A program made the translations under genes and the position numbers. Below, piece by piece: positions 33,831 through 62,901 of a DNA stretch of 64,000 bases. Numbering within the stretch: position 1 is the first letter of the stretch; every line of letters starts with the position of its first letter. The DNA is from Verrucomicrobiota bacterium (GTDB taxonomy: Bacteria; Verrucomicrobiota; Verrucomicrobiia; Limisphaerales; AAA164-E04): positions 4,192,001 through 4,256,000 of the forward strand of contig CP170459.1 in NCBI GenBank assembly GCA_047947115.1, in the 5' to 3' direction. Below the pieces are notes generated by a model. That model saw nothing but the letters and a program-made list of their open reading frames with translations, was not told the DNA's origin and made no database searches.

Positions 33831-36290
33831 ATGAACACACGTAAGTCCTTAAACGTATTGTTAACCACTTGCCTGCTGTTATCGACCCCAGGCCTCGACA
33901 CAAATGCAGATGAGTTAAGACTCAAATGGAACCTGCCGCCTGGAAGTAAGGATTTTCTAGCCACAGACAATGCACAAAGAGGCGCGGCATACAACCCGGC
34001 ATCCGACAACGTGCTAGTGGTGAGTCGAACCGGAGAAACCACCGTATATGTTCTTTCCGGTGCGGATGGTTCGGAACTCTATACGCTGGACAATGATCCC
34101 TCGATCATCAAAGCCGGAACCTTTACGCTGAACTTGGTGGGCGTTGCCGATGATGGAGTGGTATACGCCGGTAATCTCAGCACCAGTGCCGCAAACCCAA
34201 ATTACAAACTCTACCGATGGGAGGATGACAGTTTCAACGCATTCCCCATTGTGGCATTCGGAGATGATGAAGGAGGCGATCCGGGATTGAGTATACCCGA
34301 TGCCGACAATGCCCAGCGCTGGGGGGATTCAATGGATGTCCGGGGCAGTGGTCGTGACACACAAATACTGCTGGCATCGCGTTCGGGCACTCAAGCATCG
34401 ATCCTGACCACTACTGACGGAGAAACTTTCACCCCCAACGCTATCCTGATCGAAGGCATCCCGGCCGGCGGCATCGGATTAGGTGTCGCTTTCGGAAAAG
34501 GGAACACCTTTTATGGATCGACCGTAAACGGACCCGTTTACCTGATTGAATATGATTTAATCACCGGAACAGGCAGTGTCATTGGCACTTACCCCAACAC
34601 CATTGTATCTGGAGGAACGGCTCCGTTGGGATCGGATCCCGGCTCCGATTACCTTGCCGGACTGAACGTGGGAACGCATCAGGTCACCCTGTACAACATC
34701 AGTGATGCGCCCGATGCGCCGGTATTTCAAGCCGCGTATTTGATGCCCGTCTCAAATGCCAACGCCAACGGAACCGGCGCTGTGGATGTGGCAAATCAGG
34801 TGTTGATTTCGCTGGACACAAATAATGGTCTCTCAGTGTGGGAAATTGTTGCATCCGACGAACGACTTGCTCCGGAGATCGTTACCCCCCCTTTCAGTCA
34901 ATCTATATTGGAAACCGCAAGCGTTACTTTTTCCGTCGCGGTGACAGGTACACCACCTTTCAACTACCAATGGTTCAAGGACGGCCAGGCAATCGCTGGC
35001 GCCAATCAATCCACTTTGGAATTCAGCAAAGCCGCCCCGAACGACGCTGGTTTCTACCATGTTGAAATCAGCAACGAGACAGGCAGAGCCACCAGCGACG
35101 AGGTGGAATTCGTCGTAAACCCCCTGATCGATTCATCCAAGGTAAAGGAACTATGGTCATTGGAGCCTGGATCACGCTCTTATCTGACGACAGATAATAC
35201 ACAACGCGGCATGACCTTCAACCCTGCCACCGGCAACATCATCATTGCCAGCCGGTCCGGCGGCAATCATATGGTGGTGTTGAACGGAGAAACCGGTGAA
35301 GAACTGCATGAGATGGATACCGATTCAAGCATCCTGGTACAGGGGCTTTTCAAACTCAACATGATCGCTTCCAGTGATGATGGAGCGGTTTTTGCAGGCA
35401 ATCTGACCTTGAACGGCAGCGACACCAACACCCCTTACGCACTCTATATCTGGACAAACGACAGTGCCGATGCCGTTCCGGAAATAGCGTTCGAAGGAGA
35501 TCCGGGTGACGGGATTGCTGAACGTTGGGGAGATTCCATCGATGCGCGCGGCAGCGGCAATGAGCGACAGGTGATGATCGGCTCCCGCTCCGGTTCAAAA
35601 GCCGTGGTGTTCACGACTCAGGATGGAATCCTATTCGAGCCGCACCTATTGGAAGGCACTCAGGGAGGGATTGGACTGGCCTTTGGCAAGGGAGACACCT
35701 TTTGGACAAAAGCACCGGGGGGATCATTGAACCACTATTTCTTTGACCTCTCCAGCAACACAGCCACCTTGCTCCATCAATATCAAGCGCCGGGGGAAAT
35801 GCCGGCTGCCATGGTACCGATCGGATTTTCTCCCGAAACCGGATTGTTGGCTGGCATCGAAATAGCTACACCAGACAATCTGAAGATCTATGACCTTTCG
35901 AATCCGGATCAAGCTCCCGCACTGATCATCGAAAAACTCTTCCCAACCGACAACGCAAACGGCAACAACGTGGGAGCCGTTTCCTTTGGGCCAAACCGTC
36001 TCTTTGCATTGAACACCAACAATGGATTGCTGGCCTTTGAACTGAATCTGAATGCGGTGGATGCCCAGCCAGCCAAACTAACCCAAATAACGTTGATGCC
36101 GAATACGGGAATCACAATCCAATACGAAGGCACCCCAAACACAGAATACGTCCTGGAGGCGAGCAGTGACTTTCTTTCCTGGACCACGGTTCAGACATTC
36201 AACACCAATGAAACGGGAAATGGCATCGTCGCTGAAAACGATGCAAGGACTCAACACGACACACGTTTTTACCGAATCATCTTACCCTGA
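33831..36290 (+). CDS. Secreted protein: two DUF4623-like propeller repeats, central Ig domain, C-terminal FYR domain
   Basis: Duplicated QRGxxxNPA..SR / RWGDSxDxRGSG / LxTNNGL. Ig motif GTPPFNYQWFKDG...DAGFY. Ends RFYRIILP. Confidence 0.75.
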   Translation: MNTRKSLNVLLTTCLLLSTPGLDTNADELRLKWNLPPGSKDFLATDNAQRGAAYNPASDNVLVVSRTGETTVYVLSGADGSELYTLDNDPSIIKAGTFTLNLVGVADDGVVYAGNLSTSAANPNYKLYRWEDDSFNAFPIVAFGDDEGGDPGLSIPDADNAQRWGDSMDVRGSGRDTQILLASRSGTQASILTTTDGETFTPNAILIEGIPAGGIGLGVAFGKGNTFYGSTVNGPVYLIEYDLITGTGSVIGTYPNTIVSGGTAPLGSDPGSDYLAGLNVGTHQVTLYNISDAPDAPVFQAAYLMPVSNANANGTGAVDVANQVLISLDTNNGLSVWEIVASDERLAPEIVTPPFSQSILETASVTFSVAVTGTPPFNYQWFKDGQAIAGANQSTLEFSKAAPNDAGFYHVEISNETGRATSDEVEFVVNPLIDSSKVKELWSLEPGSRSYLTTDNTQRGMTFNPATGNIIIASRSGGNHMVVLNGETGEELHEMDTDSSILVQGLFKLNMIASSDDGAVFAGNLTLNGSDTNTPYALYIWTNDSADAVPEIAFEGDPGDGIAERWGDSIDARGSGNERQVMIGSRSGSKAVVFTTQDGILFEPHLLEGTQGGIGLAFGKGDTFWTKAPGGSLNHYFFDLSSNTATLLHQYQAPGEMPAAMVPIGFSPETGLLAGIEIATPDNLKIYDLSNPDQAPALIIEKLFPTDNANGNNVGAVSFGPNRLFALNTNNGLLAFELNLNAVDAQPAKLTQITLMPNTGITIQYEGTPNTEYVLEASSDFLSWTTVQTFNTNETGNGIVAENDARTQHDTRFYRIILP

Positions 36291-36335
36291 ATACACGAAC
36301 GCATTCATTCTAGGGAGGATGATGCCCAAAGCCCC

Positions 36336-37163
36336 TCACATCAAAGAGGGGTCCACCTCCTGGGCACCCCATAGTTGACGCCCTTCCATGCCTCCGGAAA
36401 CCACTACCCTTTCTCCTGTGATGTGACCGGCAAGACGGTCGGAAGCAAGAAAGACCACCATATTGGCAATATCATCGGGACGGGCCACCTTGGGCAGAGA
36501 AAGAGTAGCAGCGACTTTACGGGCCGTCTCCTCATCCATCAACTTTGAAGCGGTTCGTGGGACCACGGTCCACCCGGGACAAACACAATTGATGCGTCCT
36601 CCGCAATAATCCTGAGTATGCGGAGCCAGGCGCCCCAATTCGTTTTTAATTGTTGAGGTCAGACCGTAAGCCAACGCCGATTTGGCAGCCGCATAATCCG
36701 CGTGCCCAGCCTCGCCAAATACCGCGGCGGTGGAAGCGATCAACACCGCATTTCCGCGTTGGGTCTGTTCGACGTGTTGCAGGAAGGCGCGCAAACTGAG
36801 AAACACCCCCGTCAACAAGTTATCCAATGTAGCCTGCCACTGTGCCAGAGACATTTGATGCATCGGCACATCCCGCAATTCCCACGCACCGGCATTTGCT
36901 ACCAATGTATCGATTCGACCAAAATGCTTCAGGGCCCGTTGAAAAAGCGCTTCGGTCTCATCTTCCCTGCTTAAATCCGCTTGCAGGGTCAGGCATTCAA
37001 CATCGCCCAGTTCCTGCTTCAATTGTTCAACGGCAGTTCGATTGGAGCGATAATGCAATATCACATGGGTCCCTTCGGCGGCAAAGGCTCGTGCAATTCC
37101 GGATCCAATCCCGCCCGAAGCTCCAGTCACCAAAACGACTTTGTTTTTTAATCCGCTGTTCAT
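36336..37163 (-). CDS. SDR-family oxidoreductase
   Basis: VTGASGGIG, ANAG, YAAAK, NCVCPG. Confidence 0.92.
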   Translation of the reverse strand: MNSGLKNKVVLVTGASGGIGSGIARAFAAEGTHVILHYRSNRTAVEQLKQELGDVECLTLQADLSREDETEALFQRALKHFGRIDTLVANAGAWELRDVPMHQMSLAQWQATLDNLLTGVFLSLRAFLQHVEQTQRGNAVLIASTAAVFGEAGHADYAAAKSALAYGLTSTIKNELGRLAPHTQDYCGGRINCVCPGWTVVPRTASKLMDEETARKVAATLSLPKVARPDDIANMVVFLASDRLAGHITGERVVVSGGMEGRQLWGAQEVDPSLM

Positions 37164-37217
37164 GAATGCCACAAAAGGGTTCTTACCATGCAACCGGCTG
37201 ACTCGGCATCCATCGGA

Positions 37218-38057
37218 CTACCGAATGAGGTTCGAATCCCTCAACCATTCCACGGCAGCATCAGGCCAAGCGCGCGCTTCACCTTCAGAATGCAAACCGT
37301 AGCCATGACCTCCGGTGGCGTATAGCTTAAATGCATGGTGTTTTCCGGCTTTTATTAAAGCTCTGGAATAAATCTTACTGCCGACCACGTGTGTCTTGTC
37401 ATCCTCACTGTGAATGATCAGTGTTGGAGGAATGTCTGCTTCAAGATCGAGATCTGTGGAAACGCCCCCTTGTTTATCGTTCAGGTAGGCAGGATAAACA
37501 AGCATGACAAAATCAGGACGACAGCTGATATCATCGATTTGATCCAACGACGCGTAAGCCGGCTGTGCAAAATGATGGCTTGACCTGGCAGCAACATGTC
37601 CCCCCGCGGAAAATCCGATCACCCCGATTCTCTCCGGATCTCCCCCCCATTGCGAAGCATTGGCGCGCGCGATCCGAATGGCGCGTTGGACATCCTGAAG
37701 CGCACCATCTCTGTTATTGGGGGTGCGATATTTTAAAACCAATGCCATGATTCCAGCCTGATTGAATCGCTTTGCAATCTGTGAGCCTTCCTTGTCAACA
37801 ACCGTATAACGGTAACCACCTCCTGGACAAACAATCAAAACAGGAGCAGGATTTTCCGGGTCCAGTTTAGTTTGAAACAAAGTCAAGGTGGGACGACTCA
37901 CATTGGTGATGCGCTGGAATCCATCATCACGCTTCACTTCTGATTCAGGTTCATTGGCGACCTCTCCTGGCACTTGCCCTTTGGGCCAAACATCCAGGAC
38001 AAGTTCGTCGGCACACAATGACAAAGATGCCATCATCATTAGAAAGAATCGAATCAT
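37218..38057 (-). CDS. Secreted alpha/beta hydrolase (acetyl/xylan esterase-like)
   Basis: CPGGGY, GFSAGG nucleophile elbow, RPDF, GGHGYG. Confidence 0.88.
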   Translation of the reverse strand: MIRFFLMMMASLSLCADELVLDVWPKGQVPGEVANEPESEVKRDDGFQRITNVSRPTLTLFQTKLDPENPAPVLIVCPGGGYRYTVVDKEGSQIAKRFNQAGIMALVLKYRTPNNRDGALQDVQRAIRIARANASQWGGDPERIGVIGFSAGGHVAARSSHHFAQPAYASLDQIDDISCRPDFVMLVYPAYLNDKQGGVSTDLDLEADIPPTLIIHSEDDKTHVVGSKIYSRALIKAGKHHAFKLYATGGHGYGLHSEGEARAWPDAAVEWLRDSNLIR

Positions 38058-38178
38058 ACCTCATGATATCCAGGCCCGGACAAAGATTTCAAGTCGGCCA
38101 GGTGCTTTTGTGACGCAGAAGTTTTTCTGAAATGACTTGTGGCAAACGCCATAGTCCAATCAGTTCATCCCGACCAAT

Positions 38179-38233
38179 AAAAGAAAACGGGCCCTGCGGC
38201 GACACACGGTAAGCAACGCCAACAAGACCCGTT
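38179..38233 (-). terminator. Probable intrinsic terminator of the pilin/lipoprotein/1365-aa operon
   Basis: Minus-strand stem AACGGGTCTTG...CAGGGCCCGTT followed by TTCTTTT. Confidence 0.55.
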
Positions 38234-38361
38234 CCAAGCTGTTCCGCCACTCGGCGGTGCTTTGTTAATTTGACTCAAGCAAAGCGCCAGGTAGCTCTGC
38301 GTGTGAAGCTTCACTAGCTGGCGTTGAGATATCGTGTCTGGCAATCAACACTTTCGTGCAA

Positions 38362-41300
38362 CTATCGAGACCTGAAGTAGGCCTGGCCTTGATCGGCTGG
38401 CACAGTGTAAGGACTGGTCGCACTGTCAACAGGTGTCCAGGGACCACTGATCGATCCGGCTGTTTCCAACACGGAACCTTCATAGGTAATGGTCACTTGT
38501 CCCCCATCGGCTGCAATCGAGATGGAACTGGGGATGGCTTCGTGCACGATCAAATTATCGATCGCCCACCACCAGTCGTTACCTGCGTCGAAGTAACCAA
38601 AGGTCAAGGTTACGTTTTTCGCACCGGCTGGATTATCCAACGATAGAATCACATTTTCATTCGGGGTATGATCCTTGAAGTTGGGGCTGTCGGAATTCGA
38701 TTCCCACAACATGACTTGCACAGGATCAGCGCCATCATAAGAAGCCATGATATTGGCAGTCTGGTGATAGTTGCTGTCATACTCAGGACGCCAGGAAGAA
38801 TCAAACTGCAATTGCAAGGCACCGGCAGTTGCGCCGGTTATGTTCACATCCCAGGAAAGGAAGGTGTTGACATAACCTTCAGCGTGAGGCTGATCATCCC
38901 ATTCGTCACCATCAGCAATGGCAACGGTTCCGACACCATTTACGAACTCACTGCGACGTTGATCACCCGCAGTTTGAACCCACCAGTCTTTGTTGGCGAA
39001 ACTCCAACCAGCCCATTCGGTCACACCGTCCGTGTCGTCATTGCCAACACCAGCCACACCGGAATCATCGATGGACATGTTGTAAGGAGTTGATTTGGTC
39101 CAAACATCATCAGCGGCGACTTCTTCATTCACGCTGCTGCCCAGGGTCAGGCGTTCGAAGTTTTCGAAACCATACACACCTGGCTCAAGAACGTGTTGGT
39201 AGGCACCTTCTTCGATTCGGACGTTATCAATTGCCCACCACCAGTCGTTGCCGGCATCGAAGTAACCGAAGGTCACCACCATGCTCTTGGCTCCTTCAGG
39301 ATTGCCAAGAGGAACCATCACGCTGTCGTTGGTTGCATTGGGTTTGTAGTAAGGGCTGTCTTCATTGGATTCCCAAAGCATCACTTGAACAGGTTCGCCA
39401 CCATCATAGGAAACGGTCACGTTCGCGGTCTGATGATAGTTACTGTCATATTCAGGACGCCAGGAGGAGTCGAAGTACAGGGCCAATGAACGGGCTGAGG
39501 CGGAAGAAACATCCACGGTCCAGCTCATGAAGGTATCCATGAAACCTTCGGCGTGAGGTTGATCATCCCATTCGTCACCATCAGCGATGGCAATTGTTCC
39601 GGAAGCTTTGGTGAATTCGCTGCGACGTTGGTCACCGGCGGTTTGAGCCCACCAGTCTTTGTCTGCGAAACTCCATCCGGCCCACTCGGTCACACCGTCG
39701 GTGGCGTCATTGCCCACACCGGGAACACCTGAATCATCGATGCTCCAACCTTCAGGAGCAGTCTTGGTCCAAACGTTGTCGGCAGCCACTTCTTCGTTCA
39801 CACTGGAACCAAGGGTTAATCCCTCGAAATCCTGTGAAGCGAATGAAGGCGCTTGCGGCAAAACACCATAAACTTCGATGTTATCAATGGCCCACCACCA
39901 GTTGTTTCCGGCGTCATAATAACGGAACGACAAGCTCATCGTGCTGGCTCCGGCCGGAGCGTCGATGGCGATGGTCACCGTGTCGTTCGGAGCATGGTCC
40001 TTGTAGTTAGGATCGTTGGATTCGGAACGGAACTCAGCGATCTGCACAGGCTCAGCTCCATCAAAGGAGGCCTCGATCAGACCAGTTTGGATCACTTCAG
40101 GTCTCCAACTGCTGTTGAAGCGAAGAACCAGTGTTCCCTGTTCCACCTCAGCGATGGAAATGGCAGGAGTGATGATTTTGGTGTCCATGGTTCCGAGTCC
40201 GGATGGGCTCCCTTTGTCGTCCCATTCGTCACCGTCGGCGATGGCCACGGTTCCGGTTCCCTTGGTGAATTCGGTCCGGCGTTGATCACCTGCGGTGTTA
40301 GCCCACCATTCACGATTGGCAAAAGTCCAGCCTTCCCATTCACGAACACCGACTTCGTCGTCGTCCAGACCTGGCAGATCATTCACACGATCCCAGCCGC
40401 TGGGCAGTGTGTCGGTCCATACTTCATCGCCAGCAACGCCTTCATCAACGTTGGCGCCGAGGGGCAAGCCTTCGAAACCTTCGAAGAAGATCAAAGAACC
40501 AGGGATAGCTTCTTTCACCTCCAGCAAAGCGCTGGAGGATTCAGGAGTAGAACCACCAGCATTGCTCACCACAACACTGTAATTTCCTACATTGGCAGCT
40601 TTGGCATTTGAAATGGTCAAAGTGTCAGTGTTTTCATTGGATGATGATGTGGCAATGGATTCGCCCTTGAAGAACCATTCATAAGTGAAGGGGCCGGAAC
40701 CATCAACGGTCACAGAGAAGGTCGCTTCAGAACCTTCGGTGACTTCAGTAGGAGCAGGAGAGCTCACCAAAGTAGGAGGTGCGGCGCCTGCATTCAAAAC
40801 CAAGTTATCAATGGCCCACCACCAGTCATTACCGGCGTCAAACATGCCGAACTTCAAGGAAACGGAATCGACACCAGCAGGATTATCGAGCTGTATGATG
40901 ATTGTTTCGTTCGGAGCATGATCGTGGTAGTTCGGACTGGCTGGATCAGAGACCCAGCGGAGGATTTCAACGGAATCTCCGTTGCTGTAGGTGGCAACAA
41001 TGTTACCGCTCTGACGATAATTGCTGTCAAACTCGGGTCGCCAGCTGGAAGCGAATTGGATGTAAGCAGATCTGGGAGCAACACCAGCAAGGGAAATTTC
41101 AGGTGTTGTCACGTATGTTTCATACCATCCGTTTTCTGCGGAATCAGCGTGAGGTTGATCATCCCATTCGTCGGGATCAGCCACCATGACTGTTCCGGTA
41201 GCAAGAACGAATTCACTGCGGCGCTGATCGCCAGCAGCCTCTATCCACCAATCTTTATCAGCAAAACTCCAACCCGCCCATTCGGTCACACCATCGGTTT

Positions 41301-42459
41301 CATCATCACCAGCACCTGGGACACCACTGTCATCGACATCTCCCCAACCTTCAGGTCCCTTACGGCTCCATGCTGTGTCAGATTCAAGAGATTCATCTTC
41401 GTTAGGTCCAAGGACAACAGATTCGAAATCTTCGTAGTAAATGGCAGCATCAAAAGCATGCTCGGCTGTCTGCTCGCCAGCTTTGTCGTCTGAATAAGTG
41501 ATGGTCAGGGTGTGCTTGGATCCGGGAGCAAAAGGCTGATCGCGGTCTACCAACACAATAAAATCATCACCTGATTTGCTGATGGAAGGACTCTGCACTT
41601 CACCGTCCAAGGTAAGCACAATGCTATCCTGATCGATGGAGGTGCTTCCCTGATTCAAAGTAATACCCACATCTGTGGATCGTGAAGCCACATTGCCAGA
41701 AGGCAACCAGTTGACGATGTATGATGGAACATCAGGAAGCGTTTCAGGAATACCTGCTGCTGTTGGAGTGCCCAAGGCAAAGGCTTGTCCGGCACTGATG
41801 GCGCCTTCTCTCAATTGGATGCTGTTGACATAACCTTCCTTGGTAGGTCCAAACAAAAGGACGTCGAGTTGCGAGTCAATTGTCTGAGGGCCAAAATCCA
41901 CTAGGTCTCCAGGGATCGACCAGGTGGCAGTCGGTTTGCCGTCCAAATATCCGGAAACGAGCTGTGAGCTGTGATCAATGGTGAAGATAATTCGGTGCCA
42001 GGTATCAGGCTGGACTTCACCACCTCCATTAACACCTACGACTGTGTTATTTCCTCCCACTAGTAATTCTGGTCCCGCATAATCAGGATTCAAGTCAGCC
42101 AATCCACGTTCGGATGAATTTGAGGCAAGAGGATAATACACATCAAACATGATCGTGTAGGTGTTCGGATCAGCCATGTTGTTGAAAACAGGAAGGGTGA
42201 AACCCGTATCCGCTTCCGTGATTTCGGGAAATTTCAGGACTTGAGCCTCCTCGCCGTTGATATCACCAATACCGAAGGATGTGGTGGTGCCGAAAGTGCC
42301 TTTGGCAAAGAATTCGGTGATCGGGTCACCGCCATTGGCACTGTTGTAGTTTCCGTCAAACTGCCAGAGGCCCACTTGCTGGGCCTGGGCTGACAGCCCG
42401 ATTCCGATGGTCGCCGCGAGCAGCGCCATAGAACTTAGTATTTGTTTTATGGTTATCAT
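38362..42459 (-). CDS. Large acidic secreted protein: LamG-like N-terminus, Ig domains, four ~200-aa 'WWWAIDN' repeats, C-terminal YFR domain
   Basis: Signal peptide, WHRI...YLDG, four copies of EWxGWxFA / GDQRRxEF / DEWDD / SSWRPE / DAGNxWWWAIDN. Ends AYFRSR. Confidence 0.75.
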   Translation of the reverse strand: MITIKQILSSMALLAATIGIGLSAQAQQVGLWQFDGNYNSANGGDPITEFFAKGTFGTTTSFGIGDINGEEAQVLKFPEITEADTGFTLPVFNNMADPNTYTIMFDVYYPLASNSSERGLADLNPDYAGPELLVGGNNTVVGVNGGGEVQPDTWHRIIFTIDHSSQLVSGYLDGKPTATWSIPGDLVDFGPQTIDSQLDVLLFGPTKEGYVNSIQLREGAISAGQAFALGTPTAAGIPETLPDVPSYIVNWLPSGNVASRSTDVGITLNQGSTSIDQDSIVLTLDGEVQSPSISKSGDDFIVLVDRDQPFAPGSKHTLTITYSDDKAGEQTAEHAFDAAIYYEDFESVVLGPNEDESLESDTAWSRKGPEGWGDVDDSGVPGAGDDETDGVTEWAGWSFADKDWWIEAAGDQRRSEFVLATGTVMVADPDEWDDQPHADSAENGWYETYVTTPEISLAGVAPRSAYIQFASSWRPEFDSNYRQSGNIVATYSNGDSVEILRWVSDPASPNYHDHAPNETIIIQLDNPAGVDSVSLKFGMFDAGNDWWWAIDNLVLNAGAAPPTLVSSPAPTEVTEGSEATFSVTVDGSGPFTYEWFFKGESIATSSSNENTDTLTISNAKAANVGNYSVVVSNAGGSTPESSSALLEVKEAIPGSLIFFEGFEGLPLGANVDEGVAGDEVWTDTLPSGWDRVNDLPGLDDDEVGVREWEGWTFANREWWANTAGDQRRTEFTKGTGTVAIADGDEWDDKGSPSGLGTMDTKIITPAISIAEVEQGTLVLRFNSSWRPEVIQTGLIEASFDGAEPVQIAEFRSESNDPNYKDHAPNDTVTIAIDAPAGASTMSLSFRYYDAGNNWWWAIDNIEVYGVLPQAPSFASQDFEGLTLGSSVNEEVAADNVWTKTAPEGWSIDDSGVPGVGNDATDGVTEWAGWSFADKDWWAQTAGDQRRSEFTKASGTIAIADGDEWDDQPHAEGFMDTFMSWTVDVSSASARSLALYFDSSWRPEYDSNYHQTANVTVSYDGGEPVQVMLWESNEDSPYYKPNATNDSVMVPLGNPEGAKSMVVTFGYFDAGNDWWWAIDNVRIEEGAYQHVLEPGVYGFENFERLTLGSSVNEEVAADDVWTKSTPYNMSIDDSGVAGVGNDDTDGVTEWAGWSFANKDWWVQTAGDQRRSEFVNGVGTVAIADGDEWDDQPHAEGYVNTFLSWDVNITGATAGALQLQFDSSWRPEYDSNYHQTANIMASYDGADPVQVMLWESNSDSPNFKDHTPNENVILSLDNPAGAKNVTLTFGYFDAGNDWWWAIDNLIVHEAIPSSISIAADGGQVTITYEGSVLETAGSISGPWTPVDSATSPYTVPADQGQAYFRSR

Positions 42460-42522
42460 GTTCTATATAGCAATATGAATATATTGGGTATGAGGGATGT
42501 AAGAAAAAGCTGTGCTTAGCCC

Positions 42523-42912
42523 CTACTTCGTCAGGGCTCGTTGTCGCATGAGTTGTTCGGCCTTGCGATCGCCTTTTTCCTGGGCGGCACGTGCCACTTC
42601 ATCATTGACTGTCATGAGACATCGGCTGGCGGTTTGGCGCTGAGGATCTGTGAGATCTCGACGTGAGCACAAAGCTTGAATGATGGATGAAGATTTGACG
42701 TAATCTTGTTTTGAATATGCAATAAGAGCATCCTGAACAATCTGTTTTACCTCTTCAGAAGCATCTGCAAACGCCTCATTCATGGCAGGATTCACCTCGT
42801 CGGGACCAAATGATTCAGGCCCCGTGTATTTTTCCTCACCACAACCGGAAATCAGCCAGATGCATAGGGTCAGCGCGAACACCAACCAAGTGGATTTGTT
42901 GTCTTTCATCAT
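42523..42912 (-). CDS. Small helical lipoprotein, hypothetical
   Basis: Lipobox LISGC after a hydrophobic stretch; co-oriented between the pilin-like gene and the large protein. Confidence 0.75.
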   Translation of the reverse strand: MMKDNKSTWLVFALTLCIWLISGCGEEKYTGPESFGPDEVNPAMNEAFADASEEVKQIVQDALIAYSKQDYVKSSSIIQALCSRRDLTDPQRQTASRCLMTVNDEVARAAQEKGDRKAEQLMRQRALTK

Positions 42913-42931
42913 AGTCGAATCAGGTTGTCAG

Positions 42932-43744
42932 TTAAGGACGCTGTTGGGGATCTTCTCCTGTATACCAGCGGTAATCGACACCTTTATCGAAACCAGCGAA
43001 ATTGACCGTGCTTACATGTCCGCCAATCCAAAGAATGTTGTTGCGCTGGTTGTGACGATACCACTCAAGCCACATTTCCCTTTCTGGATAAAGTCCCTGA
43101 AGATCGAAACGCCATTGGGTCAAAATCTCACTCTGTCCAGGAAACAGTCCGATTGAGTCGGGAACACCTTCCATCTTTTGCTCTGCGGCGTCTTGACAGA
43201 AAATCGTGGTCGTTGGATTGGTGAAGGCTGAGATCTTCGGTTTTCTTCCACCAGCGGTCATTTGACCATTGATTCCGAATGCTGAATCCAACCAAAACGA
43301 AGCAGGAAACCTCAATCCCGTTTCGCGCCATTCATCGACATGTTTGGCACTCGGGCAGTTAAAAATGGAACGTGCATTTCCAACATAGTCCGAGTAGCCA
43401 ATCCCCCAATAAGCATTCCCATGATCCTTTTCAAGCTGAGCGGTCGAACGGGGATTGATGGTCCACATACCATGATTGGGAAAGTTCCCGTTGATGTTCC
43501 AGAACTCGTCATTGTTGTCGTCCGCATACATGACGATCGCCAAGCCGATTTGCCTCAGATTGTTGATGCACTTGGTTCCCTTGGCTTTTTCTTTCGCCTG
43601 GCTTAGAGCCGGCAAAAGCATGCCCGCCAAGATGGCGATGATGGCAATAACCACCAATAGTTCGATGAGGGTAAAGCCGGATCTTCTCAGTAAAGAGCCG
43701 GATGGGTTTCGTTGAATGGAATTCAAACCAGATTTCAGATTCAT
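42932..43744 (-). CDS. Prepilin-type N-terminal cleavage/methylation protein (DUF1559/H-X9-DG type)
   Basis: [55 protein letters not shown]. Confidence 0.92.
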
Positions 43745-43973
43745 ATTTATTCGGGTGTTGTGATAAGATTTGAGCACTTGGCAAATTGTCACAATAAAAA
43801 ACTTGAAAAACAATATCTAATTTCTCGGGACCCCATAAACACTTTTGCGTTAATAGGCGAAACGAATATTGGATTCAGGCCTTCAACTCACTCTCAGCAC
43901 GACCTAGAATCTGGTCCGATTAGAAGGCGGAATAAAAGAGAAATGGTTACAATTAGGTTACAAGAAGGGGATC

Positions 43974-44501: not shown

Positions 44502-44625
44502 TCAAGCTTTCCCCTCTTGTTTTGGCAAGCCGCGATTATCCTAAAACAATCCCCAACAAACCACAAAACGGAACCTTGATATATGATGACATTGCGCTAA
44601 ATTCTCACGCATTGGATCAATCATT

Positions 44626-45093: not shown

Positions 45094-45120
45094 GTTCAAC
45101 TTACATCATTTCAAACAGGA

Positions 45121-45148
45121 AGGAGCCCTCTGCAGGGCTCCTTTTTTT
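45121..45148 (+). terminator. Intrinsic terminator
   Basis: AGGAGCCCT-ctgc-AGGGCTCCT followed by a T tract. Confidence 0.85.
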
Positions 45149-46862: not shown

Positions 46863-46880
46863 TTTAAGAATATCAGAAAA

Positions 46881-49212: not shown

Positions 49213-49216
49213 TTTT

Positions 49217-52547: not shown

Positions 52548-52551
52548 AAAG

Positions 52552-53349
52552 TTACGAAGCTTCCAAAAACGCGGTCAAGGGACTCGTGGCACGGGCGGTT
52601 CTGGAAACAACGCCCACCCCGATTTCAAACGCTTCCCTGCCCGCCTCGACAGCTTTGCAGAAAGCTCGCGCCATCCTGACCGGATCTTCGCACACGGCCA
52701 TGGCGGTATTGATCAACACCGCATCCGCTCCCAATTCCATCGCTTCCGCAGCATGACTTGGCGCGCCTATTCCAGCGTCCACCACAACGGGCACCTGTGC
52801 TTGTTCAATGATGATCCTGATCTGATCCCGGGTTGCAATTCCCTGATTGGAACCAATGGGGGACCCCAAGGGCATCACCGTCGCAGTCCCCACTTCCTGC
52901 AGGCGTTTGGCGAGCACCGGGTCGGCATTAATATAAGGCAGTACGGTGAACCCCTCCTTCACCAACACCTCTGCCGCCTTGAGCGTTTCGATGGGATCAG
53001 GGAGTAAATACCGTGGATCCGGATGAATTTCGAGCTTTACCCATTTTGGCAAACCAGCCGCCACCGCCAGGCGCGCAAGGCGAACCGCTTCATCGGCATC
53101 CATCGCCCCGCTGGTATTGGGCAGCAACAGGTATTTTTGGGGATCAATAAACTCAAGGATATTGGCAAATGGATCACGGTTACCTGACAGATCGGCGCGC
53201 CGAAGTGCGACGGTCACGATTTCCGTTCCACTTGCGGCCAAGGCGTCCCGCATGGTTTCAGGGGACGCAAATTTACCCGTTCCCGCCAGTAGCCTGGATT
53301 GGAAACGACGATCAGCAATTTGAAGAAATGACTCTTTGGATTCGGTCAT
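52552..53349 (-). CDS. thiG: Thiazole synthase
   Basis: [40 protein letters not shown]. Confidence 0.95.
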
Positions 53350-53596
53350 GTGGCCCAAAGCCTAAGCCAAAAAACAAAAACGTCCAGTAACGATTGAAGA
53401 TGAAAATTTAAAAGCTGCCACCGCGTCAGGTAACTGAGATTGACCATTTCCGGCAGGGCTACGCTGCTGCGGGGCCGTGAACGCCCCAACGGTTTAAGAG
53501 TTTAAGAATGTCCGGCTCTATCCGAACACCCCACCGCACACATTGCAGGGCGTCCCTGTTAGCGCTGAACGCCCTCCATCAACAACCGGACTCACA

Positions 53597-55048: not shown

Positions 55049-55256
55049 CCAACCTCACCCATGAAAGTTTGCAAGTGAAAACCAGAATCTCAATGAGATC
55101 TGATGACAAAACACAGCAAATCAATGATCCTGGACAATCCGGTCTTGGGCACAGGTGGCTTCTCCAAAAACTGTTCTACTTACCCGGTCCGGCGAAAGGG
55201 AACCGAATCATCCCAATCTGCATCCCAAACTAATCCGGTTCATCCTGTTCAAAAAA

Positions 55257-56054
<798 letters not shown>

Positions 56055-56084
56055 ATCAATCCTTTTTAATCCACGGATACATTC

Positions 56085-58613
56085 TCAAGGTGCCACCAAT
56101 CTGAAGAACGTATTTCCTTCTTCGATGGACATGGTGACCACATTTTGATCACCGATAACTTCAGCCACGGCTCCCACGTCGGTCCAGGCTCCATTCAAAT
56201 TGTCCGTTTGCTGAAGCACAAACGACGACGCTGCAGCGGGCCAACTGAGTTGAAGATTACCTCCATCTGCGAGTTGATAAGCCAGCATGACATCAGCCGG
56301 TTGTGGTTCGGGCGGAACGAAATCGCCTTTGACGATGTGGATATCGTCCAGCAGCAATGTGTGATCACCTTGAGGGTTGGTATCAAACTGCAACATACCG
56401 TCCGGGAACGCAGGAACGAAGGTGTGATAGCGAAGGTGAAAAGGATTGTTCCCACCCACAGGAAGCACTTCTTCTTCATGCAGGATTTCCTCATCAAAGC
56501 TGACGGCATAGGCTGTCACACCGCCTTCCCCACAACAGTTACGTGCATTGACGTAGTAATACAGGGTGTATGTCTCCCCAGCTTCCAATCCTTCAACAAA
56601 CTGGCTCATACTGGAGGCATTTTGAATGAACAACACAGAATCCTGATCCAACCCGGCGCCATTGTCGGAGAAAGGTCCTTGACCGGTTACATTGACCCCG
56701 CGTCCACCTGATGTGAAGTCCCATCCGGCCATGTTCGCCGGTTGGACATAACCCACCCCGACAGGACTTCCGCTAGCCTCGAAACTTGGATTTTTGATCA
56801 CCACTTCATCTTCGCCCCGTGGAACGATATTGACTGCATCCAGCAAGATGGCGGCATCACCCTCGGCGGTTGTTTCAAACTCCAGCAAACCGCCGGATGC
56901 GGAGGCTTTGAAAGGAATGTTTTGGAAATAATACATCTCCAAACCTTCTGCAATGGCAGGGAAAACGTCTTCAATACTCCACAACTCTTCTCCCGCCAAA
57001 CGCACTGCCAGATCAATCGTACCTCCGCAGCAGTCCCTTGAGTTGTAATAAAACTGCAACCAGTACGATTCACCCGCTTTGAGTCCGTTTAGTTCCTGGG
57101 ATAGTATCTGACTCCCCTGAAGCACGGCGACTTGTCTGCGATCAGGAATCGCCCCGTTATCATGGAAAGGACCTGCGGCAGGATTGAGTCCGGTTCCTCC
57201 CGTCCAGGAAACAATGGGACCGGCACCAATACCGGGAGGAGCGTCATTGCTTTCAAAGCTGGCATTCCGCACGATGGAACTGACGACATTGACGCGCGTG
57301 TCATTGGTAATCTCAAGCCCATTGGGGGGTCCCACCAACATCCGTGCAGCACCTCGGCCAACACCGACGACCTCGATCACTTTGACGTTGTCGCCGCCCT
57401 TTTCAAATTCAACCACCAGGGTGCCCTCTTCATTGGCTCCCACCAGATTTGCGACTCCCGGGTTGGGACTGGTCATGCTTAATTGCCCCGATTTCAGAGC
57501 GATGTATTCAGCAGGTACCGTCACGGTAATCTCTCCTTTTTGTCCGGGAGCCAACTCCAAAGCGGGTGGTGTGATTTCGACCGGAGGAAAGGATTGTCCA
57601 AGTTCTCCTATCAGGTGAATCGAATCCAACAAAAGGGTATGATCACCTTCATCGGTTTGTCGAAAGCTGAGCAGTTTCTGAACATCATCCGCGACAAAAC
57701 TGATATTCGCCGTTTCGTAACCCTTGTTACCCACGACAGGCGAGACGCTCCTTTGAAAGACTTCTTCTTCCCCAAGGAACACGGACAATTGTGGGTTATC
57801 ACCGGATCGGGCATTGTATTCGAAACTCAATTCATAACTGTTCCCAACCACCAGATTGTCGAGTGTCTGGCTCAGAGATCCGGGTCCGGAAATGAATCCG
57901 ACAAAATCCGGTTCGGAAGAGCGTCCGTTATCGGCATAGGGGCCAAAACCATCGAGGTTGACACCATAGATCCCCTCACCGGTCCAACCGGCCATGCCAG
58001 CCGGACTGATGATTCCGTCCGGATCCAGCGTTTCACCGCTGGCATCGAAACTGGGGTTCATCACTGGCACTTCATCCTTACTGCGTTGAATAATACTCAC
58101 CGCATCCAGGTTGACGGTGGCATCGCCGTTGGCCACGGTCTCAAACCTGATCACACCCGCATCAAACTCGGGTACAAAGGCAATGTTCCTAAATTTGTAG
58201 GGATTCCCATCAGTGGACGCCCGAACGTTGTTGATACGATCCAATTCCACATCGTCCAGTTTCACGATCAGGTCAATCGTTCCGCCACAGCAGGCACGTG
58301 CATCATAAAAAAATTGCAGCCAACTGGTTTCACCAGGAACCAAGCCGAATACTTCCTGCGACAAGGAAGTAGTACCTTGCATAAAAACAGCGCGTGTTTG
58401 ATCAGGGATCGGCGTCCCTCCGTTGTGAAACGGACCATCCGCCTGATTCACACCCGAGCCTCCGTTCCATTCGTCTATTTCACCGTAATGAGGCCAGGTT
58501 TCCGGGTAATTGAATTCGAAACTGGAATTCAGGAAGAGGCTTTGAGCAAATCCCATTGAGCTTTGTGCCAGCAAGGCAACGATCCCCAATCTTGCTAGTG
58601 TTTTCTTGTTCAT
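56085..58613 (-). CDS. Secreted protein with four DUF642/CBM-like beta-sandwich repeats and C-terminal FFR domain
   Basis: Signal peptide; four NxSF(E/D)...GP(F/Y)..NG...LD repeats; ends NTFFRLVAP. Confidence 0.75.
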   Translation of the reverse strand: MNKKTLARLGIVALLAQSSMGFAQSLFLNSSFEFNYPETWPHYGEIDEWNGGSGVNQADGPFHNGGTPIPDQTRAVFMQGTTSLSQEVFGLVPGETSWLQFFYDARACCGGTIDLIVKLDDVELDRINNVRASTDGNPYKFRNIAFVPEFDAGVIRFETVANGDATVNLDAVSIIQRSKDEVPVMNPSFDASGETLDPDGIISPAGMAGWTGEGIYGVNLDGFGPYADNGRSSEPDFVGFISGPGSLSQTLDNLVVGNSYELSFEYNARSGDNPQLSVFLGEEEVFQRSVSPVVGNKGYETANISFVADDVQKLLSFRQTDEGDHTLLLDSIHLIGELGQSFPPVEITPPALELAPGQKGEITVTVPAEYIALKSGQLSMTSPNPGVANLVGANEEGTLVVEFEKGGDNVKVIEVVGVGRGAARMLVGPPNGLEITNDTRVNVVSSIVRNASFESNDAPPGIGAGPIVSWTGGTGLNPAAGPFHDNGAIPDRRQVAVLQGSQILSQELNGLKAGESYWLQFYYNSRDCCGGTIDLAVRLAGEELWSIEDVFPAIAEGLEMYYFQNIPFKASASGGLLEFETTAEGDAAILLDAVNIVPRGEDEVVIKNPSFEASGSPVGVGYVQPANMAGWDFTSGGRGVNVTGQGPFSDNGAGLDQDSVLFIQNASSMSQFVEGLEAGETYTLYYYVNARNCCGEGGVTAYAVSFDEEILHEEEVLPVGGNNPFHLRYHTFVPAFPDGMLQFDTNPQGDHTLLLDDIHIVKGDFVPPEPQPADVMLAYQLADGGNLQLSWPAAASSFVLQQTDNLNGAWTDVGAVAEVIGDQNVVTMSIEEGNTFFRLVAP

Positions 58614-58654
58614 GATGGTCTCGTTATTATGGATTTCTTATAAGATAAATTAAA

Positions 58655-59449
58655 TCAACGAATCGTATTGGGCTTCTTGAAATCCATGATCACCTGATTG
58701 GTGGCTTGCGATGGTTTCATGGCGCTGATGTGGGCATCCATGAACAGAATATTGGCCGCGCCATCCGGATGCTCACTTCCGTGTTTGTAACCGACATCAT
58801 AAGTTCCATTAGGTTGTGCTCCAATGAGGATCACCGCAGGATGATTGAGGTCATATGAAATATCCGATACCAGGTGTGTATTGGCCGGATTCGGAACCGA
58901 AGAAAGTTTGGCGGTGTTGGATGACGGGAAATCTCCAGAGTTATTGGGGAAATTGGACGAAGTATGCTGATTCATTCCGTAACTGATCTTCCACGGATTC
59001 CCCTGCCCGTTGTAATGTTTGAATCCACGCCAATGGTTTTCCCGCATTCGAATCGGGCAAATGGAAACGCCATTGGTGAAATTCATTCCCTCCTGCCCTG
59101 CATCAAACTTTTGACGTCCATAATATGGAACCAGAAGCGCCTCAAAATTATTGATGTTGGCATTGTGAATAAACGTGTTTTCACCATGCCCCCAGGCGTA
59201 GGGCAGCTTATCATCATTGTCATCCGCATACATCACCGTGGCAATCCCCATCTGTTTGAGATTGCTGATGCACTTGGTCGCATAAGCTTTTTGCTTAGCC
59301 TTGCTCAGCGCCGGCAACAGCATTCCGGCAAGAATGGCAATAATGGCGATCACCACCAGAAGTTCAATAAGGGTGAAACCCCTTTTCTGCCGAGGTTGCC
59401 ATGTATACAACGGTACAGAACCCGCCTGACTGTCATGACAGTTTTTCAT
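58655..59449 (-). CDS. Prepilin-type N-terminal cleavage/methylation protein (H-X9-DG variant)
   Basis: [52 protein letters not shown]. Confidence 0.92.
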
Positions 59450-59880
59450 GGAATGAACACATGAAACTCCTTCAATATCGGGACGTCAAGGTCAATCACA
59501 AGCCTTTCACACACATGGGGCGCAGTTCATTTTTTAGACAATGGAGGGGAGAGTTCCACCTCGCCCCAAACTTTCCCCTTGAAAACGTTCCTGAGCAAAA
59601 GGAATGGAACACGGGGAAACTATTGTTCATCGATTGACTGAGGTGTTTCCATTGCAGCTTGAAAAGGTTCCCAAAGCACCGAGGTTTGTATTGGGTGTAA
59701 GACGGAGCTTACCCCTCCGATAGTGGATTTCTATTTTTTGAACTGCACCCAACATCCTCACAATTTGATAACTTGGCATGATCATCACAACACCTACGAC
59801 ATTTGCCGAATGAATTTGGAACGGATCGTGCTGTATATTATGGCAAATTTGGAAAGTCACAACCAAAGCCAAGGAGTGTC

Positions 59881-62800
59881 ATGAAGGAAGACAAATACCA
59901 CCATACTTTGTTTCGGTCAGCCACCTGTTCAGTGGTGATCCTTTTTCAATGCTTTTCCAGCTTTGCACAAGTTACGGACGTAAATGTCTCACTGAAAAAC
60001 ATCACGCCTCAGGAAATGATTGAAGGGGATGATGGCGATCGAGTCATTGAAATCCTTCCACAGTTACAGAAAAGCCTCCCATTCCCCGTCGTAGTGGGCA
60101 TCACCACTCGGCCACAAACCGCCACCAGCATCGAAGACTACACACCGATATCAAAAACCGCCACGTTTCCCGCAGGCAGAATTCACACAGGGCTTCCCCG
60201 CCCTGAATCCTCCGGGGATGCCCTCGCCCGGCTGATCAACATCGAGCGCGGTTTCGGTATGGAGATGCTGGCGGATATCACCCGCCCTACATCCCTGGCC
60301 ATCTCAAGAAATCAACCGGATTTTGAAGAGGGCGTCTATGTGGCACAAACCATGCACAACAACGACACGAAACCCGATCAGATCTTCCACGTATCATTCG
60401 ACGGCACTTCAGTGAAAACTTTTGTATCGTTGCTCCCTGAAGCGGATCCGACCGGATTGGATTTCGCTCCTCTGGACGGACCGTTCAAACCGGGACTTTA
60501 CGTGAGTTCGAACAATCGTGACGGGGGACGTCCAGGAGACTGGGGTGGCACCATACAATGGATCGATTCAGAACAGAACATCGTCGATTTCACAGGCATC
60601 GGCACACCCAACGGACCGGGTGAACCGGGTGAATTGGCCTTTGGCACACACGGTTGGATGCGCGACCTGCTTCTGGTCGTCAACTCGGTAGGCAGCCCGG
60701 CCGATATTTTGAACATCTCTTTTGATGGAGAACTGGAACCACTGTTCAGTGATGGATTATTCGATCAAAGCAATGCAGGAAATGCTTTCCGATCCCTGGC
60801 GATACCTCCCGAGGACAGTCCCTTTGGAGATTGGGTTTACATGGGCGAGTTTGGACGGGACTGTGTCTGCATTCAACGGTGGCACCCTGAACGTGGATTG
60901 AAACCGTTCGTCTCAAACCTCGAAGGATCGCCACATGGCATGGCATTTACATCTGGCAGCCTGTTTGGAAACAACCTTTACGTAGCCATTGATCTCGGGA
61001 ATGAGGGCAAAGTGCTCCGCATTGATTCCAACGGAACCATCTCGGAATTCATCTCGGGTTTGCAGGGGTTCCTATATGGAAACGGCAAAGATGTCCTGCA
61101 ATTTGACGAAGAACATGAACTTCTCTATGTGAGCGACTACTACGGACACCGGATCTATCGAATAGGTGAAGAGGAAGGACCACTGGAAGTAACCATCCAC
61201 GGGGACAAAACACCAGAACCAGACGAAACCCTGCTGGTCGAAATGAACACGTCGAATAATGATGTCCTCCTCCAGATCCCTGTAACCATCCTGAATGATG
61301 ATGGAGCCATCCCTGAACCTGAACCCGAACCCGAACCCGAACCTGAGCTTCCACCGGTAATTATTCCGACATTACACATCGCTTTTGAAACGCCATTGAA
61401 TCGGCAATCATTCGAGATGGATTTCACTCAGTCCCCAGCGTTTGCCAGGATCCCCATAAGCCTCAATGTTAAGGGAACCGCGCGAGAACCGACCGTAACG
61501 GTATTTGTGAATGAGCAACGCATCCAAACATTCACTTCGCCTCCGTATACCACCCAATGGGAGACGGAACAAATCGGCGAATATTTGCTGACCGCCATTG
61601 CAGAGGATGGAAATGGACATCAGGTCACCGCAACACCCATCCGAATCCAGGTTGCCCAAAGTTCCGGAAACATATTCATCATCGAAGAAGCCCGGGATCT
61701 CCAGAGTGAACGCATGCAAGCTGCACTCTTCGAAATGGGTTTGACCGGTTGGTCCGTCCACCCAAGCTCCATCTCTGCCGAATGGCTTTCAAAGGCAGAT
61801 TTGGTGATCTGGAAACAATCACTGCGGGACTCGGCTGATCATCCGGAACTGGCGACAACATTGCTGCATGCACAAGCTGCAGGAATGCCTTTATACGTCC
61901 TGACAGATGCACCTGCATTGAACAATCCCACCCCGCTCTTCCCTCTGCCAGCGTGGACAGAACTGACAGGAATACCTCAGCTCGACATGTATCCGGCACA
62001 AAACCAAACGCTCCTGCCTGCATTGGATTTGGCACATGCATTTCTTCAGGGGCAATACGGGAATGTCAAAGACATCCAGCCGCAGACACCGATTTACCAT
62101 ACATCTGCACATCCCCAATTTGACACTCGTATTCTAAACACCGATGCCGACCACTTTGCCATGGCTGCTTCTGATCCATTCAACACATCAACTCCCCATC
62201 AAGATCGCATGGTGGTCCAGTTGTTCCCCGTGTTTCCGGACGTACCATCTGGAGACAGGTCGGGTCAGACATCCCTGTTTCAAAACACGGTTTGTTGGCT
62301 GCTCCATTGCACGCCGTGTGAAAACATGGATCTCGCACTGAGCAGTCGCAACCAGGAACCAGACATTTCCCAAGGCAACTCATGGGAAACAGAATTCACA
62401 CTTCAGCACGTAGGCGAATGTGTCGCATCGGGTGTGTATGTCGATTTTGCGTGGAGCGACCACTTGACCGCGACAGAACTGGTTTCTGAAACAGGATGGC
62501 AAGAACACCTCCCCCACACCATTCGTTTACACCTCGGAACCGTGGCCAGCGCCAGCAGACATTTGTTTGTATTAAAGATGAAAGGCCAGGCCGATCAAAC
62601 CGGGTTTGTGACCGCCACGGTTCATGCATCCAACGGAGAGGCTATCCGGGAAAATAATCTAACATGGAGCGGCATCGCGATTGAGGAACCGGAGCCTTGG
62701 TTGAGAGCCATCATGCTTCCGGGAGACATTCCAGCCTTGATCCTTCCCTCGAACCTTGATCTTTCCAAACCCATCAACCTTCAATGGTCCATGGATCTTC

Positions 62801-62901
62801 AAAACTGGACAACATGGGAATCCTACACCCGGGAAAATGTTACTCTCATCCCAGAAACATTCCGGGATAAAGAGGCTTCCTTTTACCGAGTGGGACCTTA
62901 G
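59881..62901 (+). CDS. Secreted multidomain protein: split Calx-beta, beta-propeller, PE linker, Ig, DUF11-like, C-terminal FYR domain
   Basis: AGGAG RBS before ATG 59881. Motifs TATSIEDY...TFPAG, GDKTPEPDET...TILNDD, (PE)n, PYTTQW...YLLTAIAED and IRENN. Ends SFYRVGP. Confidence 0.75.
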   Translation: MKEDKYHHTLFRSATCSVVILFQCFSSFAQVTDVNVSLKNITPQEMIEGDDGDRVIEILPQLQKSLPFPVVVGITTRPQTATSIEDYTPISKTATFPAGRIHTGLPRPESSGDALARLINIERGFGMEMLADITRPTSLAISRNQPDFEEGVYVAQTMHNNDTKPDQIFHVSFDGTSVKTFVSLLPEADPTGLDFAPLDGPFKPGLYVSSNNRDGGRPGDWGGTIQWIDSEQNIVDFTGIGTPNGPGEPGELAFGTHGWMRDLLLVVNSVGSPADILNISFDGELEPLFSDGLFDQSNAGNAFRSLAIPPEDSPFGDWVYMGEFGRDCVCIQRWHPERGLKPFVSNLEGSPHGMAFTSGSLFGNNLYVAIDLGNEGKVLRIDSNGTISEFISGLQGFLYGNGKDVLQFDEEHELLYVSDYYGHRIYRIGEEEGPLEVTIHGDKTPEPDETLLVEMNTSNNDVLLQIPVTILNDDGAIPEPEPEPEPEPELPPVIIPTLHIAFETPLNRQSFEMDFTQSPAFARIPISLNVKGTAREPTVTVFVNEQRIQTFTSPPYTTQWETEQIGEYLLTAIAEDGNGHQVTATPIRIQVAQSSGNIFIIEEARDLQSERMQAALFEMGLTGWSVHPSSISAEWLSKADLVIWKQSLRDSADHPELATTLLHAQAAGMPLYVLTDAPALNNPTPLFPLPAWTELTGIPQLDMYPAQNQTLLPALDLAHAFLQGQYGNVKDIQPQTPIYHTSAHPQFDTRILNTDADHFAMAASDPFNTSTPHQDRMVVQLFPVFPDVPSGDRSGQTSLFQNTVCWLLHCTPCENMDLALSSRNQEPDISQGNSWETEFTLQHVGECVASGVYVDFAWSDHLTATELVSETGWQEHLPHTIRLHLGTVASASRHLFVLKMKGQADQTGFVTATVHASNGEAIRENNLTWSGIAIEEPEPWLRAIMLPGDIPALILPSNLDLSKPINLQWSMDLQNWTTWESYTRENVTLIPETFRDKEASFYRVGP

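Follow-up and report, generated by a model that had tools for sequence, protein, structure and literature searches.

A locus with four tail-bearing proteins of predicted secreted type

The window analysed here is the whole stretch of 64,000 nucleotides at positions 4192001-4256000 of contig CP170459.1, a 6.08-Mb one-contig genome of the phylum Verrucomicrobiota, to which the named relatives of its proteins also belong. It encodes four large proteins of secreted type, carriers 1 to 4, which end in the same small domain (the tail domain, Table 1), and this domain very probably has some role in surface sorting. The four open reading frames (ORFs) and their tails lie where the original prediction had placed them, and a six-frame profile scan of the window gave these four tail-domain places and no fifth. 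The same scan gave no copy in the sulfatases, the esterase or any CxxCH protein of the window, as had been predicted. Genome-wide, 6 of the 163 CxxCH proteins >500 aa do carry the tail domain, and in genus g6 sulfatases have it too (see below).

The bodies of the four carriers had been described as unrelated, which holds overall, the exception being one 75-aa immunoglobulin (Ig) domain common to the proteins at 33798 (carrier 1) and 38362 (carrier 2). The ORF of carrier 1 opens at 33798, and the ATG at 33831 is consistent with its signal peptide; its DUF4623 name comes from PF15416 on homologues. The body of carrier 3 matches choice-of-anchor C weakly, below cut-off, and the likely start of carrier 4 is the ATG at 59881. 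The tail of carrier 4 scored E 0.002 in the six-frame scan and 93.5% in HHalign over 43 columns, with a profile that includes this tail among its 64 rows.

Table 1. Carriers, tail domains and neighbouring genes of the window (positions counted from its first nucleotide)
Feature	Position	Strand	Description	Evidence
Carrier 1	33831..36290	+	~819 aa; signal peptide, an Ig domain set between two DUF4623-type propeller domains, tail domain last
Tail domain copy 1	36075..36287	+	71 aa	Six-frame profile scan, E 3e-14
Carrier 2	38362..42459	-	1365 aa; signal peptide, repeated unnamed domains with a Trp-Trp-Trp motif at the end, one Ig domain, then tail domain
Tail domain copy 2	38365..38526	-	54 aa, shortest form	Six-frame profile scan, E 1e-10
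ORF between pilin-like gene and carrier 2	42523..42912	-	129 aa	Without NCBIfam match
Prepilin-type N-methyl / DUF1559-like gene	42932..43813	-	Upstream of carrier 2, same strand	PF07963; TIGR02532 over cut-off
Prepilin-type N-methyl / DUF1559-like gene	55257..56054	-	Directly downstream of carrier 3	Library profile matches
Carrier 3	56085..58613	-	842 aa; signal peptide, DUF642/HpiC1-like domains, then tail domain
Tail domain copy 3	56088..56291	-	68 aa	Modelled as six-strand sandwich, pLDDT 88.4
Prepilin-type N-methyl / DUF1559-like gene	58655..59449	-	Directly upstream of carrier 3	Library profile matches
Carrier 4	59803..62901	+	1032-aa ORF; weak Calx-beta and Big_7 matches, then divergent tail domain
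Tail domain copy 4	62698..62898	+	67 aa, divergent	C-terminal half alone aligns

The tail-domain family in the genome

An [FY][FY]R motif within the last 11 residues was found in 77 of the 3,578 ORFs of at least 250 aa, against 11.3 expected, a seven-fold excess. With a profile built from the four tails alone, the first round yielded 32 domains, of which 28 were C-terminal; the refined profile yielded 142 domains in 135 of the 4,853 proteins (E<0.01) and none in the reversed proteome. Terminal 95-aa pieces gave 126 matches, and pieces from 150 residues deeper inside the proteins gave 2, from sets that differ in size. Looser tail-only scoring added 13 proteins (one further match was discarded by eye), and a profile of a long subtype added 7, all of them its own rows and chosen by eye, for an upper carrier count of 155.

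The tail domain is 55-95 aa long overall and forms the protein end in 139 of the 155 carriers (~90%), with a median of 5 residues after its Arg. As anticipated from the four tails, the matches are mostly terminal and on proteins of signal-peptide type, but a strictly C-terminal position, which the original prediction implied, was not found: nine copies stand right behind an N-terminal leader, six are internal, one is an internal pair and one is a seven-copy array, and in 7 of the 155 carriers the domain is internal only. The protein bodies joined to the domain (passengers) fell into 86 clusters when 121 of them were compared.

Signal peptides were called by a crude heuristic in 81 of 133 carriers, in 25 of 174 controls with cytoplasmic motifs and in 944 of 2,977 other proteins. 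Internal transmembrane (TM) segments occurred in 3 of 135 carriers and in 431 of 2,530 comparison proteins. A lipoprotein or twin-arginine translocation (Tat) route was rejected, since neither motif was enriched among the carriers (lipobox 4/133, Tat motif 0/133). Carriers are large and contain little Lys and much Thr, Asn, Gly and Asp; 24 of the 49 proteins >1,500 aa in the genome bear the tail domain, compared with ~3% of all proteins.

The seven-copy array stands at the end of a 3,021-aa subtilase (G000:C1:476355-485420), which closes a minor-pilin / PilX-like cluster beside PilB and PilT-like ATPases. Proteins similar to it were also seen in other Verrucomicrobiota (P0307, P0321, P0332, P0341). 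A protein that by eye is cyclophilin-like (G000:C1:380753-381703) has a divergent tail copy, and its four paralogues in the genome have none.

Sequence and predicted fold

Median pairwise identity among the tail domains is 18%, with the consensus G-x-l-x-l-x-W, G, Y-x-L-[EQ]-x-S-x-D-L, W, F-[YF]-R-V. AlphaFold, run on the 64-row alignment, predicted a six-strand sandwich with a predicted local distance difference test score (pLDDT) of 88.4, and the long-subtype model (89.1) has the same strand order. Both models contain six strands of at least 3 residues and a short bridge at the Trp, and the short- and long-subtype profiles are homologous (HHalign, 95.5%). The tails would thus have a common fold, as had been anticipated, in two subtypes with one predicted topology.

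The top Foldseek rows were fibronectin type III (FN3) domains for the short type, none at E<=0.001, and Ig C1-type for the long subtype. A VIA structure search gave FN3 domains with a best Z of 6.7, a middling value (root-mean-square deviation (rmsd) 2.9, 71 aligned). The FN3 alignments span residues 3-77 of 96 (3mpc) and 1-78 of 102 (2kbg) and end ~20 residues short of the chain end, and the tail domain is predicted to be an FN3-like sandwich minus the last strand. With FN3 (PF00041, which we take to be the Fibronectin type III domain) it shares the predicted topology and a pattern of Trp, Tyr-x-Leu-Glu, Trp and aromatic-Arg-Val; it differs in the predicted lack of the seventh (G) strand, in having no Pfam fn3 match among the 64 members and in its array period. 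Among the top 150 of 34,714 matches to 50%-identity representatives, a total that includes ordinary FN3 arrays, 99 arrays were of the tail-domain class, a few of them misclassed FN3 arrays (median period 78 aa, median 5 copies), and 51 were canonical FN3 (92 aa). From the shorter period we infer that the G strand is missing even within arrays; in the P0304 array, 7 residues lead from the last strand of one copy to the first strand of the next.

Pfam and NCBIfam gave no curated match for the four proteins, their tails or the 64 family members. Por_Secre_tail and dockerin families were absent from the Pfam/NCBIfam matches of those members, and five long-subtype tails were without NCBIfam match. 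Sequence searches of the PDB returned weak FN3 and glucanase matches alone for the short type and nothing for the long type, and the clusters that the ESM Atlas returned at 0.95-0.96 were unnamed and from Verrucomicrobiota. A literature search that had most subscription papers outside its reach gave no paper describing the family as such.

The original prediction likened the tails to the type IX secretion system (T9SS) C-terminal domain (CTD), an analogy that stands in part and has been drawn in print for one member (see below). Both are, in the case of the tail domain by prediction, small folded beta-sandwiches that end Sec-exported proteins, with low identity among members and many copies per genome. 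The tail domain has no sequence match to the T9SS CTD (TIGR04183; also PF18962, which we take to be the T9SS C-terminal domain), and it also occurs N-terminally and in arrays, so that it is not strictly C-terminal (139/155). The T9SS CTD is described as a seven-strand sandwich ending in strand beta7 (PMC11285876, partial text), whereas the six-strand tail-domain models are apparently without the seventh, C-terminal strand, a comparison made without direct superposition. No T9SS CTD stood among the listed rows of the structural searches with either type, which is not an exclusion. PorV (PF19572), matched in the control Bacteroides thetaiotaomicron, was not found in this genome, which is 95.8% complete; SprA (PF14349) and TIGR04183 likewise gave no match here, with their control genomes equally silent.

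Interchange with known anchors

The passengers of carriers 1 and 2 also occur with other C-terminal modules. Long homologues of the DUF4623 passenger of carrier 1 retain the tail domain in 118 of the 120 listed (of 343). The 63 short homologues divide into 36 with PEP-CTERM (called by pattern, one example being confirmed over the TIGR02595 cut-off), 13 with the tail domain, 14 with neither, many of them fragments, and none with both. In 77 genome loci with DUF4623, 79 matching ORFs comprised 64 with the tail domain, 6 with PEP-CTERM, 6 that are cut off and 3 with neither. The passenger of carrier 2, for which 120 of 1,108 homologues were listed, ends in PEP-CTERM (n = 44), a short Trp-x-Leu-aromatic tail (n = 17), the tail domain (n = 9), a dockerin-like module (n = 4) or none of these (n = 46, none/other), and one homologue passes NF041540 (GC-dockerin). 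Such alternation with anchors is what one would expect if the domain were a module for sorting or anchoring. This genome itself has 4 PEP-CTERM-like proteins by pattern, as compared with ~150 carriers.

PEP-CTERM (TIGR02595, PF07589) and GC-dockerin (NF041540) share with the tail domain the same junction on the same passenger domains; the tail domain matches neither model and has no TM helix or basic tail. It thereby departs from the tripartite plan of signature motif, TM helix and basic tail seen in PEP-CTERM, GlyGly-CTERM and MYXO-CTERM, being all-beta in the models. In its way of working the tail domain would resemble a T9SS CTD or a PEP-CTERM anchor, but it belongs to neither family. A DUF4623 search for T9SS-tailed carriers outside the Verrucomicrobiota gave almost only Verrucomicrobiota and so did not demonstrate interchange with the T9SS CTD.

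Planctomycetota relatives of one passenger bear PEP-CTERM or dockerin tails, and the family appears to belong to the Verrucomicrobiota and not to the whole Planctomycetota-Verrucomicrobiota-Chlamydiota (PVC) group, the wider scope of the original prediction.

Three-gene cassettes made up of DUF4623 with the tail domain, DUF4623 with PEP-CTERM and one pilin-like gene were seen in L070, L072 and L132. The short tail of the 17 carrier 2 passenger homologues (P0223, P0224, P0246, P0253 and others of the 120) reads V-x-x-W-x-L-aromatic, has no NCBIfam match in P0223 and may be another uncatalogued C-terminal sorting signal.

A published surface member in Akkermansia

Carriers of genus g6 are large enzymes (GH18, sialidases, sulfatases) with the domain at the end or a few residues off. 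This genus we take to be Akkermansia because both secretins of genome G063 are of the Amuc_1098 type. A g6 sulfatase (L221) matches PDB entry 9s8x with 2,916 bits and is identical to it over 177 aligned residues; the listed sequence of 9s8x ends ahead of the tail. 9S8X is the sulfatase Amuc0953 of Akkermansia muciniphila, and its published reverse primer corresponds, as reverse complement, to the last codons of the tail, which is of the long subtype and homologous to the window type (HHalign, 95.5%).

Amuc0953 is reported to have a signal peptidase I peptide and to be the source of the extracellular activity, cell-bound and absent from the medium, while its paralogue Amuc0451, consisting of sulfatase and PA14 only, is the source of the intracellular activity (PMC13524802, partial text). 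Its authors found the last domain to resemble a T9SS CTD and suggested a comparable system, with the route unknown (PMC13524802; bioRxiv 10.1101/2025.09.11.675649; partial texts). This likeness, for one member, was already known (PMC13524802, partial text). The accessible text of that paper discusses the domain for a single protein and its relatives in Akkermansia and does not mention a phylum-wide family, the interchange with PEP-CTERM or the secretin neighbourhood. What is new is the interchange with anchors, the place of Amuc0953 as a long-subtype member and an excess of carriers beside secretin and pilin-like genes.

These data bear on the idea that the tail domain is an FN3-derived structural end-cap or spacer with no localisation role. 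Its predicted FN3-like fold, the weak sequence matches to ordinary FN3 and the internal arrays would suit a spacer, but such an element would not be expected at the terminus of 86 unrelated passenger clusters, nor to alternate with PEP-CTERM at the same junction. It is also absent from all 54 sulfatase-motif proteins of this genome, yet marks a surface sulfatase in genus g6, and we regard a mere spacer as quite improbable.

Secretins and pilin-like genes beside carriers

This genome has eight secretin genes, and two GspG and two GspK genes in type II secretion system (T2SS) operons; GspD, E, G and K are all present. A carrier adjoins 3 of the 8 secretin genes (background 6.4%, P 0.011) and 16 of the 77 pilin-like genes (background 6.4%, P 2e-5). 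In five other carrier-rich genomes a carrier adjoins 5 of 21 secretin loci by profile and 7 by eye, a count that leaves out loci centred on GspG with no secretin (L170-172, L174-176), one with the secretin at its edge (L173) and those of carrier-negative genomes (L168-169). Three carriers are among the four genes that follow the Amuc_1098-like secretin of this genome, one of its T2SS operons is followed by a carrier, and 18 of the 64 tail-domain DUF4623 ORFs have a pilin-like neighbour by hand count. A one-to-one pairing of carriers and pilin-like genes was rejected, as the excess is real at a distance of one gene and not significant at three (P 0.13).

Several features of these loci were observed in passing. 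The pilMN-O-P-Q (Amuc_1098-1101-like) operon runs directly into coaE in G063 and G197, and in this genome a locus that by eye is exosortase-like and sugar-transferase-like lies just upstream of it. Large or giant secreted-type genes stand directly after the Amuc_1098-type secretin in this genome, G294 and G264; in G294 (L151:220-9361) the giant gene is split into frames of 2,828 aa and 241 aa, the second ending in a long-subtype tail. The ORF lists of core T2SS operons (L142, L150, L155) showed by eye no obvious GspC between GspM and GspD.

The tail domain might instead be a non-covalent surface tether only, held by a surface glycan, lipopolysaccharide or a scaffold in the manner of a dockerin or surface-layer homology (SLH) module, with export set by other features of the passenger. 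Such a tether would fit the cell-bound state of Amuc0953 and its absence from the medium (PMC13524802, partial text), the alternation with PEP-CTERM and GC-dockerin anchors, the N-terminal copies and the tandem arrays (seven copies here, a median of five among the top array matches). Glucan-binding CBM56 modules are among the neighbours of the predicted fold (Z 5.0-5.3, rmsd 3.0-3.1, 67-68 aligned), but their scores do not exceed those of unrelated Ig/FN3 rows. A glycan tether often comes in repeats, whereas nearly all carriers are single-copy, and it would be left unexplained why carriers adjoin secretin and pilin-like genes in excess. On balance we consider a tether alone rather unlikely.

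Distribution across genomes

With the short-type profile the domain was found in 150 of 301 genomes of the phylum. Among 100 genomes of the same class, 50 had both the domain and GspG, none the domain only, 15 GspG only and 35 neither. In other classes, each of the 8 domain-positive genomes that were rechecked for want of a GspG match has a diverged GspG-like gene, almost full-length, that scores under the cut-off. These figures, and the GspG and GspK operons of this genome with a carrier after one of them, would suit a dedicated signal for the canonical T2SS (GspG and core GspD). Strict nesting in the canonical T2SS, perfect with the short-type profile, was overturned by the long-type profile, which gave 1-8 copies in 8 of 22 g6 genomes, the other 28 negatives of that scan staying negative. 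In g6, canonical GspG was found in 0 of 22 genomes and a match to the core GspD N0-N1 query in 0 of 11, and both G063 secretins are of the Amuc_1098 type, which contradicts the canonical T2SS as a universal rule. GspG without the short-type domain also occurs in 93 of 300 genomes, and 15 same-class and 33 other-class genomes that were GspG-positive and short-type-negative stayed negative with the long-type profile. A signal dedicated to the canonical T2SS is accordingly very improbable.

All 15 carrier-positive genomes in the test gave an Amuc_1098-type match, and each of the 7 genomes that gave none is carrier-negative; the survey included 4 further genomes without a domain test. As weak evidence, this distribution is compatible with an Amuc_1098-type machine as the route.

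Another candidate is a non-secretin translocon, so far unrecognised, that would be a functional analogue of the T9SS with an outer-membrane barrel of its own. The predicted sandwich type and terminal position resemble those of the T9SS CTD (PMC11285876, partial text), a comparable system was proposed by the authors of Amuc0953 (PMC13524802, partial text), and the carrier-positive genus g6 is without canonical GspG. Against this, PorV was not found here where its control matched, no candidate barrel was identified (the barrel proteins of the genome were not screened), and the N-terminal copies are unlike a cleaved C-terminal signal. Such a translocon seems improbable.

A proposed route to the surface

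The reading that we tentatively prefer, at somewhat less than even chances, is that the tail domain serves, in folded form, as a surface-targeting tag that would be recognised by a secretin machine of the type IV filament family. Carriers would be exported to the periplasm by Sec, as their signal-peptide-like leaders suggest and as the signal peptidase I peptide reported for one member would indicate. The tail domain is predicted to fold independently there, and its terminal F-[YF]-R-V strand, placed at the sheet edge by the missing G strand, could be the docking edge for a partner. Passage would then be through a secretin, to judge from neighbourhood and distribution most plausibly that of the Amuc_1098-type PilMNOPQ machine or accessory secretins with a cargo gene of their own, and the carrier would be retained at the surface and not released, as published for one member. 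A secretin route has precedent, because in PelI/Pel3 the signals for type II secretion are loops of an Fn3 domain (PMC7949064, partial text) and GlyGly-CTERM and MYXO-CTERM proteins need the T2SS to reach the surface (bioRxiv 10.1101/2023.06.07.544157, partial text).

Several observations weigh against this proposal. Most carriers have no secretin or pilin gene nearby, with 14 of 135 beside a pilin-like gene. A directly adjacent carrier was found in 0 of the 6 conserved core GspD operons examined and, by the short-type profile only, in 0 of the 2 secretin loci of the carrier-positive G063; with the latter, pooled secretin adjacency is 8/31 and not 8/29, set against a background taken from this genome only. 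The Amuc_1098-type match was also obtained in 14 of 21 carrier-negative genomes, and 6 of the 40 matches pass the family cut-off, in related genomes that are not independent. Besides the tail, Amuc0953 has two more domains that set it apart from Amuc0451, a helix domain at the N-terminus and a BACON domain, and its location is therefore not shown to be due to the tail. The PEP-CTERM forms of the same passengers are without the tail domain and, if they use the same channel, the tail domain would be an anchor and not an export signal. N-terminal copies and arrays suit a binding module as well as a tag, and no docking partner or receptor was found. Finally, given the weak sequence matches to FN3, the conserved Trp, Glu and Arg are possibly inherited FN3 structure, which we assume from titin/contactin FN3, and not a binding patch.

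The original prediction is supported in part. Its sorting or anchoring tag gains support from the alternation with curated anchors and from the surface-bound Amuc0953 with its tail-less periplasmic paralogue; the pathway is still putative, and the presumably folded, FN3-derived domain also occurs N-terminally and in arrays.

Other features of the window

Contigs from three estuary RNA libraries cover the stretch with carrier 3 between its two pilin-like genes, one contig spanning 54320-59348; they may include DNA and are therefore no proof of transcription or of a single transcript. Contigs from the three libraries omit 118 bases at 55097-55216, and several loose contig ends gather at 59365 and 59517-59600. 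Both features suggest repeats dispersed between genes, or differences among strains. An ORF at 62991-63998 (+), which runs past the end of the window, has by eye the look of an IS4-family transposase.

Implications

The tail domain bears on how Verrucomicrobiota place polysaccharide-degrading enzymes outside the cell, and the route is called unknown in the accessible text of PMC13524802. In its fullest form, which we hold to be doubtful, the proposal is of a dedicated Verrucomicrobiota display pathway in which a type IV filament secretin (the Amuc_1098-1102 machine) would receive a G-strand-less FN3 tag by beta-strand addition and so display enzymes and adhesins, from tens to hundreds in each genome, a mucin sulfatase of Akkermansia among them. 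Verrucomicrobiota would in this way possess an equivalent of type IX secretion whose basis is a type IV filament secretin. Transposon mutants and a published assay on whole cells exist for a cultured organism that has the family, and the proposal is hence testable. If it is true, surface proteomes could be predicted from sequence, by way of the tag, in much of the phylum.

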